From Octopus vulgaris (Eukaryota), in contig OX597820.1 of NCBI GenBank assembly GCA_951406725.2, positions 30,070,001 to 30,134,000 on the forward strand: DNA of 64,000 nt, given 5' to 3'. Every line of letters starts with the position of its first letter. Position 1 is the stretch's first letter. Made by a program: the position numbers and the translations under genes. Shown piece by piece: positions 32,209-62,488 of this stretch. The notes beneath the pieces are model-generated. The model was not told where the DNA came from and ran no database searches. It was given only the letters and a program-made list of their open reading frames with translations.

Positions 32209-32592
32209 CAGTGATTCTCAACTGAGCTCCATATGGGCCTTGGGGGTCCTTGGGTGTCCATATAACCATTAGGAGGTTCATATAGCTCTTGGGGGACCAT
32301 ATTGCCCCTGGGGGTCCATATAGCCCCTAGGAGTCCATATAGCCCCTGGGGGTCCATATAGCCCCTGGGGGTCCATATAGCCCTTGGGGTGTGGTCTTTT
32401 ATTGTTAAACTTTATCTGCAATAAATTAGTTATACACAAAATATTTCAACAACTTTTTTTGTACAATTCCTAATATTTAATTATAAAAACATAATAGGAT
32501 TTTTTGAACATCGAATGACTGTGAGGTTCCAGTAGAGTAACACAGGAATCAAAGGGGTCCATAGGTAAGAAAAAAATGATTGCGAAACACTG
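32209..32592. mobile_element. hAT-type MITE with 8-bp TSD and an internal 20-bp tandem repeat
   Basis: TIRs cagtgattctcaac and gattgcgaaacactg; flanks atttaaac and atttaagc; internal (ggggtccatatagcccctgg)n. Confidence 0.8.
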
Positions 32593-38419: not shown

Positions 38420-39170
38420 CATTCAGTCGTTCGATCTGCGAGAAATAGCAGCCAAATCCTAATTCTTTCATATAATCTTCGAACATCTTTAAAATGAAAG
38501 ATAAAGCTACATTGGATAATATAGTCTGAAATAATAAACATAATACTGTCATGGCTGGAGCGCCTTTGATCCTACGTCTTAGCAATGAGAGCTAAACTCA
38601 TAGACGAGACAAAAGGAATCCTCCATTTGGTCGATTGACTTCCTAGAAACAACTGCCAAGCTCCAATTCCCTCAAACCATACTCTACATACAAGCTTAAA
38701 AATTATGGGAAAGAAACGACGAGACGGCCACGGCTGGAACGCCTTTGATCATATATCTTAGCAATGAGAGCTGACCTCAGAGACGAAGCAAAAGGGAGTC
38801 ACTATGTGGTCGCCCGACTTCCAAGAAACAACAGCTAAACTCCAGTTCCCCTCAGCCCATACCCTACAGTCTATCAAATATAGGAAAGAAAAGATGAAAC
38901 AGTCATGGCCGGAATGCTTTTGATCATATTCTTAACAACGAGAGCTGACCTTAGAGATGAAGCAAAACGGGAGCCTTTATGTTGTCGATCGACCTCCTAG
39001 AAACAATAACGAAATTCAAACAAACCAACTGTCTCTAGAATATGGAAAAGGATGCGTTAAACATGGTAGTTTTTAAATATATATAAAAATACGAGAAGTT
39101 CACGACTAGAACATCCTTTGATCATTGGTCTGTTACTTAATCATGTATGACCTGGGGCTACACAGAGCAA
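38420..39170 (+). repeat. Diverged ~180-bp tandem array (about 4 units) of an interspersed-repeat fragment
   Basis: Units gtcg..cgac.tcctagaaacaa..ca.ggctggaa.gcctttgatc..cttagcaatgagagct start near 38425, 38628, 38808 and 38985. Single related copies occur at about 3835, 8620, 18835 and 53050. Confidence 0.75.
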
Positions 39171-41619: not shown

Positions 41620-41847
41620 GAATATCGGTTTCAAATTTTGGTACAAGGCCAGCAATTTCAGGGGAGGGGGTTAGGGTTAGGATTAGGTTACATCGAACCC
41701 AGTACTCAACTGGTACGTATTTTATCGACCCCGAAAGAATGAAAGGCAAAATCGACCCTGGCGGCATTTGAACTCGGAACGTAAAAATAGACGAAATGTC
41801 ACAAAGCATTTTTCCAGCATGCTAACGATTCTACCACCTCGCCGCCC
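41620..41847 (-). mobile_element. SINE family A with 12-bp TSD
   Basis: ttagtcattgac on both sides (about 41608 and 41848). Confidence 0.85.
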
Positions 41848-42230: not shown

Positions 42231-42314
42231 TATTGTATTTTCTTCTCTGCATATTTATTTCTGATTTTTTTTAATGCTCCCTAAATTAAAAACGCTAACA
42301 CTATCTTAAATAAT

Positions 42315-42530
42315 GTGGAGGCGCGTGACGTTGCACTCATGATCGTAACATTCTGGTTTCGATTCTCGGATCGGGCGATGCGTTGTGCTCTTGAGCAAAA
42401 CACTTCATTTCAAGTTGCTCCAGTCCACTCAGCTGGCAAAAATGAGTAATCCTGCGACAGACCGGCGTCCCGTTTAGCAATGGAATATATACGCCACGGA
42501 ACGCTGGAAACTGGCCTTACAAGTATAACT
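42315..42530 (+). mobile_element. Single-headed family D SINE, paralogue of the 24-headed copy
   Basis: Shares head variants (gcactcatgatcgtaacatt, gattctcggatc), body and about 60 bp of upstream flank with 43265-45148. The A-box region is deleted. Confidence 0.88.
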
Positions 42531-43338
42531 CGGGAATGAGTTTTATCGTTTTTTTTTTATCTTAACTATGTTGTTTTTTTTTTTATGTGGTTAGTAACAA
42601 TTCTAGTCTTTTTACGCTTGCCTTTGTACAGTCATCTATACATATAATTACTAGTTTCTTCATCACTACTTCGTTAAGTATGACAGAGGCTGTGCATCAC
42701 TGATGAGATCATACCAAAACCGAAACACGCTCGGAGTTACCTCCCGTACTTGCTGGAATAATTAAAATATTGATTTTGCTTCTTTTTTTTTTTCTCACAA
42801 CATAAATGTTTCTAGTCATCTGTTTTTATGTTCTAGTTAGCTGTTTGGTGTTCCCTATAACAAATACGATACCACTAACATAGCAACATTAACTATGTTA
42901 CTACAAGAACTAAATTTCCTTTAAATTATGTATTTTTGCATTGGGAAAGAAAGGGACTCGCCGGATGGGATAATACTTTTTTATATTAGATTGAGCTGGA
43001 GAAAGGAGTCATGCTCATAGCTTTAATATTCACTTGCAGTGTGATCGACACGATTAACGTTCTTCTTGAACACTTGCAAGTCGACGACTCCAAGGAAAAT
43101 ATGCAGAATCAGATTACCAGAGGAACGTCTCTATGGAGACGTCCTTCTGGCGCAGTGGTTAATGCGAGGCCTAAATAAAGGGACCCTAATGTTACTGAAA
43201 ACAACGATAGAGATGAGTGAGTCTTTTATATTGTTTGGTCAGGCAAAAAGAATTCCCCGTGGCCCTTTATTTCTGATTATTTTTTTTTTAAGCTCCCTGA
43301 ATTAAAAATGCTAATATTATCTTAAATAAGGTGGAGGC

Positions 43339-45040
43339 GCGTGACTTAATGGTTCGGGTGTTGCACTCATGATCGTAACATTGTGGCCTCGATTCTCGGA
43401 TCAGGCGATGCGTGACTTAGTGGTTAGGGTGCTGCACTCATGATCGTAACATTGTGGCTTCGATTCTCGGATCAGGCGATGCGTGACTTATTGGTTAGGG
43501 TGTTGCATTCATGATCGTAACATTGTGGCTTCGATTCTCGGATCAGGCGATGCGTGACTTAGTGGTTAGGGTGTTGCACTCATGATCGTAACATTGTGGC
43601 TTCGATTCTCGGATCAGGCGATGCGTAACTTATTGGTTAGGGTGTTGCACTCATGATCGTAACATTGTGGCTTCGATTCTCGGATCAGGCGATGCGTGAC
43701 TTAGTGGTTAGGGTGTTGCACTGATGATCGTAACATTGTGACTTCGATTCTCGGATCAGGCGATGCATGACTTAGTGGTTAGGGTGTTGCACTCATGATC
43801 GTAACATTGTGGCTTCGATTCTCGGATCAGGCGATGCGTGACTTAGTGGTTAGGGTGTTGCACTCATGATCGTAACATTGCGGCTTCGATTCTCGGATCA
43901 GGCGATGCGTGACTTAGTGGTTAGGGTGTTGCATTCATGATCGTAACATTGTGGCTTCGATTCTCGGATCAGGCGATGCGTGACTTAGTGGTTAGGGTGT
44001 TGCACTCATGATCGTAACATTGTGGCTTCGATTCTCGGATCAGGCGATGCGTAACTTATTGGTTAGGGTGTTGCACTCATGATCGTAACATTGTGGCTTC
44101 GATTCTCGGATCAGGCGATGCGTGACTTAGTGGTTAGGGTGTTGCACTGATGATCGTAACATTGTGACTTCGATTCTCGGATCAGGCGATGCATGACTTA
44201 GTGGTTAGGGTGTTGCACCATGATCGTAACATTGTGGCTTCGATTCTCGGATCAGGCGATGCGTGACTTAGTGGTTAGGGTGTTGCACTCATGATCGTAA
44301 CATTGCGGCTTCGATTCTCGGATCAGGCGTGCGTGACTTAGTGGTTAGGGTGCTGCACTCATGATCGTAACATTGTGGCCTCGATTCTCGGATCAGGCGA
44401 TGCGTGACTTAGTGGTTAGGGTGTTGCACTCATGATCGTAACATTGTGGCCTCGATTCTCGGATCAGGCGATGCGTGACTTAGTGGTTAGGGTGTTGCAC
44501 TCATGATCGTAACATTGTGGCTTCGATTCTCGGATCAGGCGATGCGTGACTTAGTGGTTAGGGTGTTGCACTCATGATCGTAACATTGCGGCTTCGATTC
44601 TCGGATCAGGCGATGCGTGACTTAGTGGTTAGGGTGTTGCACTCATGATCGTAACATTGTGGCCTCGATTCTCGGATCAGGCGATGCGTGACTTAGTGGT
44701 TAGGGTGTTGCACTCATGATCGTAACATTGTGGCCTCGATTCTCGGATCAGGCGATGCGTGACTTAGTGGTTAGGGTGTTGCACTCATGATCGTAACATT
44801 GTGGCCTCGATTCTCGGATCAGGCGATGCGTGACTTAGTGGTTAGGGTGTTGCACTCATGATCGTAACATTGTGGCTTCGATTCTCGAATCAGGCGATGC
44901 GTGACTTAGTGGTTAGGGTGTTGCACTCATGATCGTAACATTGTGGCTTCGATTCTCGGATCAGGTGATGCGTGACTTAGTGGTTAGGGTGTTGCACTCA
45001 TGATCGTAACATTGTGGCTTCGATTCTCGGATTGGGCGAT
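43339..45040 (+). repeat. Tandem array of 24 x 71-bp tRNA-like SINE heads
   Basis: Unit gcgtgacttagtggttagggtgttgcactcatgatcgtaacattgtggcttcgattctcggatcaggcgat. It starts after gtggaggc (43331), and the last unit runs into a normal SINE body ending near 45148. Confidence 0.96.
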
Positions 45041-45512
45041 GCGTTGTGTTCTTGAGCAAAACACTTCATTTCACGTTGCTCCAGTCAACACAGCAGGCAA
45101 AAATGAGTAATCTTGCGACAGACCGGCATCCCGTTTAGCAATAGAAACTGGTGGAATTGAGAGAAAATGTATCCTCAAACAAGACACCCGACCCGAATGC
45201 TAACAACTCAGTAGGCTCCGTAAAAAAGTGCCCAAATAGCAGCTGGTGGTGTTAAATCGGGGTTGCGGGTTTATTTCGTTTCTCTGAATCGACGAGGCAA
45301 GCGACCAGCCAGATTCGAGATGCAGCGGTTATTAAAGTATCGGTTGGAAAGAGAGAAAGAACAGACAGCAGATCGGTGAGTCGGACGGAGGCTGGAGCGT
45401 GTTGGGTGAGGCCACTTCGGTAAAATACTTCTAAAAAATACAGGTGGGTCTTAGCTGGAATGACTTCAGTCATGGTCCTGCGCAATGAGGTCCGACCTGG
45501 AGCTAAACAACA

Positions 45513-45516
45513 GCTA

Positions 45517-45566
<50 letters not shown>

Positions 45567-45804
45567 ATTGCTGCTGCAGCTACCACTACCACTACTACAA
45601 TTTCTACCACCACCACAACACTACCGTCACTACGGCACTACCACCACCTTCACTACTACTACTACTACTACTATCACCACCACCACCATCACTACCGCCA
45701 CTACAATTACCACCACTACTACTAATGCAACCTTCACTACCACTACTACTATATCACCATCACTACTACAACTTCTACCACTACTGCTGCTGCTGCTGCT
45801 GCTG

Positions 45805-45871
<67 letters not shown>

Positions 45872-45884
45872 TGCTACTACTACT
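45513..45884. repeat. (CTA)n/(CTG)n/(CCA)n compound trinucleotide tract
   Basis: Direct reading. Confidence 0.95.
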
Positions 45885-46579
45885 AAAGTTTTCTTAGCTA
45901 GGTGCAGTATGTTAAAAGTCAATTCTGACAGCTATTTTGCATCATCCGTTTAATAATTACGACAGACGAATCTGTTCCATGAAAACCGACCTTATGGACC
46001 CATGTCATTCCTGAAAGGATTTACCGCCATTTACATTATATAGTTATGTCATTTAATCAACTAAAGTATGTGGACGATGTTGGTCGCATAGTTTGTCAAA
46101 GAAAATTCTTATCTTTATTGTGATTTATAATCGCACCTTTCAGCTAACGCAAGCGATTAGGTGTGTTACCATAGAAAAACAGGAACTCACTCTCTCACTC
46201 TCACTCTCATTTTTCTATCTTTCTATCTATCTGTCTGTCTCTCCCTCTGTGTCTGTATCTATATGTAGATTTTTATGAGATTGAAGTCGCTTGTAGCCAA
46301 GACTTCGCTTAGCGAGACATCCCTGAAGTTGTCAACGTAACTGCCAAAGATCAGGCACGAAGTTCTCCCTCTTACCTCCTTTGAAAATAATTTCCATGAA
46401 ATACAATGATTTTCCTTCTATTTATGATAATAATTAAAAATTATCTTTTAGTTTAGCACCATAATACTCAAGTATTCAAGTATGATGACCTGCAAATATA
46501 TATAATTGAGTCAAGGACCTATAATCTTTTAAGGGATGTTAGCATCGTAGTTCTCCGCCGGTTTATACTAGTATTCTGA

Positions 46580-61310: not shown

Positions 61311-62035
61311 GAGGGGCGTTAAATAAGTAATGCCCCTGACCCACTTCCCATAGCAGTAGAACAACGAAACTTGGCACAGTTATTAGACTTTTTCTACATA
61401 GGAACCACCCAGAGTTACGCATTTCTCCCATCGTTTGATGCAGCTCTGGAGACCGTTTTTGTAGAAGACCCCAGCTTGGTCCTCCAACCACAACGTGACT
61501 TCAGAAATCAAGGCTGCATCATCTGGGAAACGCTTTCCTTTCAAAAACAACTTCATGGCTGGGAAGAGGTGAAAATCAGAGGGTGCAAGGTCAAGAGAGT
61601 AGGAGGGATGGGAGAGGAGTTCATAGCCGCACGCCTGTGCTTCTGATCTGGTGACACGCGAGTTGTGGACCGGAGCGTTGTCCTGCAGGAGGAGGATGCC
61701 TTTGCTGATCTTGCCCCGCCTCTTGATTTTGATAGCTTCTCTTAAATACCTCAAAAGTGAAGCATAATAGGCTCCTGTAATTGTGGTACCCTTTGCCAGG
61801 AACTCTATCATCACTACTCTGTCCTGGTCCCAGAAGACTGTGAGCATGACCTTGCCATCGGAGGGCTGCACCCTTGCCTTCTTTGGAGGAGGTGAGTCAC
61901 GGTGCTTCCACTGCATTGACGGGGCTTTGGTCTCTGGACCATAGTGATGGACCCAGGTTTCATCCTGTGTAATCAGTCTTTTGAAAAATTTTGACTCATC
62001 TTCTTGGCACATCTCCAAATTCATCCTCGACCACT
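61306..62035 (-). mobile_element. Mariner 3' half with an uninterrupted DD34D catalytic-domain ORF
   Basis: ORF 61383..62075: ITQDETWVHHY, KVMLTVFWD, LLQDNAPVH, HPSYSLDLAPSDFHLF, with 34 residues between the second and third Asp. TIR cacgaggggcgttaaataagtaatgcc at about 61308. The 5' part is replaced by a SINE. Confidence 0.93.
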
Positions 62036-62039
62036 CGAC

Positions 62040-62488
<449 letters not shown>

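Follow-up and report, generated by a model that had tools for sequence, protein, structure and literature searches.

Organization of the array and its parent SINE

The window, the whole 64,000-nucleotide stretch analyzed here, corresponds to C7:30070001-30134000 of a 2.8-Gb animal genome, and positions within it are given relative to its first letter. TRF detected one long-period tandem array in the window, at 43339-45044, with a period of 71 bp, 24.1 copies and 96% matches. Cut at the repeat, the array (43339..45040, + strand) comprises 24 units, 22 of 71 bp and two of 70 bp, each covering about positions 9-79 of a SINE. Such a row of 24 near-identical units behind a family start had been described in an earlier note on this DNA, and TRF bore it out; each unit is 0-3 letters off the commonest unit (mean 1.9%), with a pairwise difference of 3.5%. 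The normal SINE 5′ start, GTGGAGGC (43331..43338, + strand; from alignment to 28 dispersed copies), lies outside the repeat unit. The unit had been taken for exactly the tRNA-derived head, but the repeat starts 8 nt inside it. At the other end, the last unit runs into a SINE body (45041..45146, + strand) that is not the ordinary one formerly assumed: its similarity to the family ends at about 45146, roughly 65 nt before the family 3′ end, and the tail is missing. Directly behind the truncated body, the stretch 45146-45500 contains CpGs and has no other match in the genome. A long trinucleotide repeat follows at 45514-45885. The array is interstitial, 30 Mb from the contig end.

The junction between units sits inside GCGT, a 4-bp direct repeat present at both head ends, in agreement with the microhomology proposed earlier. 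A genome-wide search with the exact junction, as the earlier note had suggested, gave 15 matches, 15/15 of them inside the array. With a loosened pattern, 20 matches were found outside it, and the 13 of them that were inspected are single heads. The units had been reported to lack the TTTT terminator, which is correct: neither TTTT nor TTT occurs inside the array, and the first TTTT on the + strand lies at 45889. The reported five CpGs per unit hold exactly for 17/24 units, the full range being 4-6. Both are inherited traits, as dispersed family copies show them too: TTTT is absent from the head in 27/28 of these copies, and the same stretch carries 4.0 CpGs on average (CpG o/e of the window, 0.86).

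The parent is a tRNA-headed SINE of about 250 nt; its aligned copies end in a T-rich stretch and have direct repeats on either side (repeats judged by eye). The last unit plus body matches dispersed copies on many contigs with 87-91% identity. Genome-wide, an exact 14-mer from the A box occurs 12,390 times and one from the body 16,166 times, compared to 18 and 6 for the reversed controls. The family thus displays the hallmarks of a tRNA-derived SINE, with at least 12,000 short, interspersed copies and direct repeats around several of them. For comparison we used 28 dispersed copies, the best matches to the array query and therefore skewed to young copies. Array units are 96.5% identical pairwise, against 87-91% for the best dispersed matches.

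The window also contains a 19-bp tandem array of 7 copies at 32251-32389 and a 179-bp tandem array of 2.6 copies at 38548-39006 (both TRF). Three telomere-like TTAGGG units lie at 41690-41790 and lead into the beginning of another common repeat. Of 133 stop-to-stop frames, the majority consist of simple repeats; a Pfam scan of 8 frames gave two matches to transposase families. The latter are mariner-type remnants (PF01359, PF13358) on the - strand at 613-1062 and 61383-62081; the segment 13384-13926 resembles them by eye and has no Pfam match.

Evidence on the reality of the array comes from contigs assembled from short reads in runs with different organism labels, depth being a rough guide; contig joints that may stem from other SINE copies were left out. 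The junction sequence is found at about 10-30x flank depth in contigs of runs under three labels. In X2 (label A), a 59-base contig of the unit core has a depth of 514.5 compared to 50.1 for a unique flank contig, a ratio of 10.3; the mean k-mer multiplicity predicted for this stretch from the assembled array is 10.6, on the assumption that the single difference in it represents the commonest letter of unit position 50. In X6 (label C), contigs cross the junction by 20 + 31 letters at 18 and 6x flank depth, and in X8 (label D) the junction is crossed by 60 + 10 and 20 + 40 letters, the first contig having 19-33x flank depth. X5 (label B) has a summed depth of 870 at 44966, versus 24. The flanks of B, C and D are 0.6-1.9% different from the window, and the array is present at roughly similar depth in runs of several labels.

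It is extremely improbable that the array is an assembly artefact or that its length is greatly overstated. Such an error would fit the observations that the array is spanned by no short-read contig, that contigs are missing at the 23/24 junction in X1 and at the 5′ flank in X4 (where filters may have removed records), and that on their shorter side the DNA contigs extend past the junction by 5-20 letters, fewer than the 31 letters on each side that the bridging rule demands. However, private variants are ordered among the units, the X2 core contig has almost the depth predicted, and both X6 and X8 hold high-depth contigs across the junction. A true length of one or two units, which the earlier note had allowed for, is unlikely given these contigs and the ordered private variants.

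A sister copy and the probable growth of the array in place

About 1 kb upstream of the array lies a sister copy (42254..42522, + strand), absent from the earlier note, which consists of a 5′ flank of about 65 bp and a single-headed SINE. It has lost most of its A box through a 14-bp deletion and keeps more of the 3′ body than the array element. The 5′ flank of the array element (43266..43330, + strand) was duplicated along with the SINE and has only two matches in the genome, at the array and at the sister copy. Compared to the last unit plus body, the sister copy differs at 11/156 positions; the two share 12 non-CpG variants, and the remaining pairs compared share 0-10. In a tree of 46 copies, with bootstrap not fully settled, the sister copy groups with the array element at 98/95. 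The private head variants of the locus are present in every array unit, which indicates that the units were copied from this locus in DNA, after the variants had arisen, and were not gathered from many RNAs.

Further analysis of the unit variants revealed a higher-order organization. Units 5-8 recur as units 11-14, six units apart (43623..44330, + strand), with 8 shared variants at lag 6 (p = 0.005; 20,000 permutations, best of 12 lags). In addition, a T-to-C change is concentrated in units 15-21. We infer that the lag-6 block and the clustered T-to-C change are marks of block duplication via unequal exchange or slippage. A variant at unit position 46 is present in 3/24 assembled units and, in X8 (label D), lies on a contig of about 19-33x flank depth, the deepest array contig listed for that run; this shift in frequency suggests turnover between lineages. 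The array element, having no tail and a 3′ end cut off some 65 nt early, would lack the portion considered necessary for retroposition.

These features suggest the following course of events. A tRNA-headed SINE, of the family with at least 12,000 copies described above, would have inserted at the locus. Next came a local duplication of about 250 bp of flank plus SINE, its direction being presumptive, and the array-bearing copy is without the 3′ end. A single head then doubled across the 4-bp repeat GCGT at the head ends, where the junction is seen today, probably by slippage. Out-of-register exchange or slippage may then have multiplied the unit, at least once as the multi-unit block visible at lag 6. 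To judge from contig depth, the array would have persisted through the split of organisms A, C and D, and probably B, its variants continuing to turn over. Transcription of the array would be at most background read-through. We therefore favor, with good confidence, the reading that the locus is a 24-unit minisatellite derived from the head of one truncated SINE, likely grown in place by slippage and unequal exchange and likely neutral. The sister copy, the confinement of the junction to one locus and the lag-6 block all support the earlier proposal of a satellite forming from a SINE head.

Hairpin-assisted slippage was also considered. Folded as DNA, array heads do no better than shuffles (z of +0.6 to +1.4), and hairpin assistance in the present unit was rejected on this ground. 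One ordinary family head does fold, with z of -2.3 as DNA and -3.6 as RNA, and hairpin-assisted slippage is possible for the ancestral head alone.

Promoter boxes and tRNA-likeness of the units

The A-box-like motif, the loop CTCATGA and the B-box-like motif reported earlier are all present in the units; in total, the window has 27 A-box-like matches, compared to 0 in 100 shuffles. In unit 4, taken as an example, the A-box-like motif occupies 43555..43565 and the B-box-like motif 43599..43609, both on the + strand. The key bases of the A box are T, G, A and G at positions 1, 3, 7 and 11 (PMC11724288). All 24 units keep 3/4 of them, the G at position 3 being replaced by A in 24/24, whereas 25/28 dispersed copies, a set that leans young, have 4/4. 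For the B box, the consensus reads GGTTCGANTCC, in which one C is essential (PMC3395662). Unit 4 matches it at 9/11 positions, as do 16 units altogether, and the remaining 8 units match at 8/11; in the same young-leaning set, 22/28 dispersed copies reach 10/11. The central essential C is intact in all units, and a variant that breaks T54 of the B box has spread to 6/24. The boxes make up 31% of the unit and hold 5/17 variants, with no depletion at the low power that 17 variants afford, and they show no sign of selection in this small sample.

The resemblance to a tRNA is limited. The D-arm had been called pairable, and its stem does pair if two G-U wobbles are allowed; the anticodon stem can form with a bulge only, and neither the T stem nor the acceptor stem is intact (our own reading, by tRNA numbering). 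ARAGORN, run over the whole array and hence over all permutations of the unit, as had been suggested, predicted 0 tRNA genes, and an Rfam search of the whole array gave three chance-level matches, none of them a tRNA at E ≤ 10. RNA folding z-scores of the array heads range from +0.5 to -0.4, no better than shuffles. A tRNA gene or an array of tRNA genes was rejected, as ARAGORN, Rfam and folding reveal no cloverleaf with paired acceptor and T stems. The processed tRNA-like RNAs of 71 nt envisaged earlier are unlikely in view of this missing fold.

From its sequence, the array might be read as a cluster of TFIIIC sites or of Pol III promoters, acting as a boundary or giving a ladder of transcripts, whatever its origin. 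TFIIIC binding to the units is possible, since the central C of the B box is intact, and yeast ETC6 binds TFIIIC with a non-G at the same B-box position (PMC3395662). The array offers 24 such B-box-like motifs, and the DNA upstream of unit 1 is AT-rich (20% GC). CpG changes are not in excess (2/15 substitutions), which suggests little germline methylation. Moreover, in X11, a run guessed to be RNA, a 97-base contig bridges the junction by 64 + 33 letters at a depth of 30.6; the contig attests molecules that exceed one unit in length, an outcome expected of read-through and of DNA alike. The 3′ flank is without cover in X11, and the 5′ flank has no RNA run listed; neither gap counts as evidence. 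The array is also found in runs of several organism labels, which constraint could account for too, though the flanks differ by just 0.6-1.9%.

We nevertheless consider a functional role of this kind very unlikely. The key G3 is missing from every A box, a third of the B boxes (8/24) are down to 8/11 and variants are not depleted in either. The upstream DNA of internal units is the previous unit, with 44% GC, and TFIIIB sites there would overlap the previous B box. By a crude estimate, X11 depth per array copy is about 1.3-2.9 compared to about 1.5-4.2 per average family copy, which places it at family background. Furthermore, another array type of this family (34-bp unit, 17 units) holds no B box, and the 8 Pfam-scanned frames identified no host gene in the window, though the array may still lie in an intron. 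The multi-promoter Pol III locus with a 71-nt ladder and the TFIIIC boundary proposed earlier are thus not supported, its boxes being worse than those of dispersed copies, and the neutral minisatellite remains our preferred reading. Binding of TFIIIC to the array, if it occurs, would make the locus matter more.

Other head repeats and comparison with known systems

The genome contains at least seven other head repeats of the parent family, with 2-17 units; other arrays were searched for with a strict two-motif pattern (periods of 56-86 bp, exact matches), so that the counts are lower bounds. The one with most units, at C1:170.04 Mb, has 17 units of 34 bp, covering the SINE start and A box only, before a complete body. 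Its junction fits a TTGA microhomology with the flank. Head repeats also occur at C23:30.9 Mb (about 11-12 x 80 bp), C23:32.78 Mb (3 x 80 bp), C23:33.62 Mb (5 x 79-80 bp), C7:19.37 Mb (7 x 82 bp), C19:51.57 Mb (3 x 81 bp) and C24:26.6 Mb (2 x 85 bp), and a related SINE at C7:117.6 Mb carries a dimer of B box plus body. Internal head or body duplications of 2-3 copies were seen at C19:51.57, C24:26.6, C7:117.6, C20:64.6 and C23:25.4 Mb, two of them being perfect dimers. Multi-headed copies thus recur in the family with different periods, one of them without any B box. The 24-unit array is the longest and least decayed head array found. It and the seven other loci lie 17-56 Mb from contig ends.

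A control search with the body found two loci with 2-3 copies. Head repeats are not significantly more frequent than body repeats among dimers (5/12,390 versus 2/16,166 motif sites; Fisher p = 0.25). Every array of at least five units found in the parent family is made of heads, a pattern not obviously expected from chance alone and one that counts against the neutral reading.

Four of the head repeats, three on C23 within 2.7 Mb and the one at C7:19.37 Mb, share one junction, which runs from SINE position 79 through an A to position 1 and has no microhomology. They have 3-12 heads of 79-82 bp, different flanks and heavy CpG decay, and three of the four show near-perfect direct repeats of 10-16 bp around the whole element. 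In several of them an outer head, the first or the last, is unlike those between, a pattern that unequal exchange acting on an old dimer might produce. Of 19 matches to the shared 80-bp junction, 4 lie outside known arrays and none of these is an array; no two-headed copy with the junction was found. A single clade for the four loci was rejected, as only two of them pair, at 93/92, in the 46-copy tree with its bootstrap not fully settled. Any one of three origins could account for the four loci: a common multi-headed source, local conversion or template jumping.

Multi-headed forms might alternatively have been made at retroposition, by reverse transcriptase jumping between head RNAs, or have arrived as a mobile multi-headed SINE. 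The four loci with one head-to-head junction lacking microhomology, three of them inside direct repeats, fit such an origin, as does the end of the 24-unit repeat at about SINE position 79. For the 24-unit array itself we regard it as very improbable. Its single-headed sister has the same flank, every unit carries the private variants, the unit begins at a microhomology 8 nt into the head, a tail is missing and the junction is unique; even the four loci form no supported clade beyond the one pair. The shared junction does not explain the 24-unit locus, though its unit ends at the same position. A broader proposal is that the family has a head-specific route by which multi-headed elements arise repeatedly, the seeds then expanding as minisatellites, with the 24-unit array as the DNA-level case that used the same end spot. 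A cut or a jump at the 3′ end of the head, around position 79, would be followed by joining to another 5′ start, through template jumping in reverse transcription or through transcription of multi-headed copies from any head and reinsertion; the four loci with identical junction (3-12 heads, different flanks, no two-headed example found) would be its products. We consider this proposal unlikely. If heads nevertheless prove specially prone to multimerize at their tRNA-like end, Pol III RNA processing or retroposition would be tied to the birth of satellites.

Growth in place by slippage and unequal exchange, our preferred reading, may be set beside several known systems. A literature search covering main texts found no report of head arrays in cephalopod SINEs, and no word beginning with "satellite" occurs in the available part of PMC13282606. 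Amphibians possess Pol III-type tandem repeats, namely newt PolIII/TAN, Xenopus OAX, Rana/polIII and Hy/polIII (as summarized in PMC10702118). Like the array, they have a tRNA-like Pol III promoter in each unit, and transcription in vitro is reported for the newt family; unlike it, they are high-copy with units of at least 200 nt and have no confirmed parent SINE, whereas the parent, sister and junction of the octopus array are all visible at one locus. In the bivalve Scapharca broughtonii, tRNA SINEs form direct arrays of 4-15 units, one type with a complete first head and truncated inner units (PMC11481361); these arrays repeat most of the SINE, often with target-site duplications between units, whereas the 24-unit array repeats the head only. 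The dimeric or quasi-dimeric SINEs Alu, B1-dID and Twin resemble it in having more than one Pol III head per element (SINEBase, PMC3531059), but they amplify as families, and the octopus junction is confined to one locus in a tailless element. A complex, multimeric SINE family was rejected on the same grounds of a single-locus junction and no tail.

The closest likeness is to the SINE-derived satellites sSat1-3 of squamates, whose units of about 70-290 nt each derive from a portion of a tRNA SINE (Vassetzky, Kosushkin and Ryskov 2023, PMC10702118). In these satellites, end units continue into the SINE, long loci are highly homogeneous and locus-specific subvariants alternate; variants that cover the head include sSat3Gja2 and sSat3Ppi2, and most primary duplications stay single instances. 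The octopus unit, 71 bp of a SINE of about 250 nt, lies within this size range, and the array has 22 middle monomers compared to the at least 4 asked of an sSat. Its 5′ unit reaches the SINE start and its 3′ unit runs 106 bp into the body. Its units are 96.5% identical pairwise, versus 87-91% for dispersed copies, and carry a locus-specific lag-6 block. Differences are that it resides in an invertebrate genome and that its unit has both A and B box. Abundant sSats also tend, outside the working definition, to many subtelomeric loci with one unit, whereas the array is one interstitial locus. PMC10702118 leaves open whether SINE-derived satellites are confined to squamates, and the octopus locus offers a clean, datable example outside reptiles of a satellite seed growing from a SINE, with the pre-array state kept 1 kb away; it might be of further use as a single-locus length marker. 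Altogether, by analogy, the locus likely belongs with the SINE-derived satellites already described in reptiles, and it fits the early, single-instance stage that PMC10702118 portrays.
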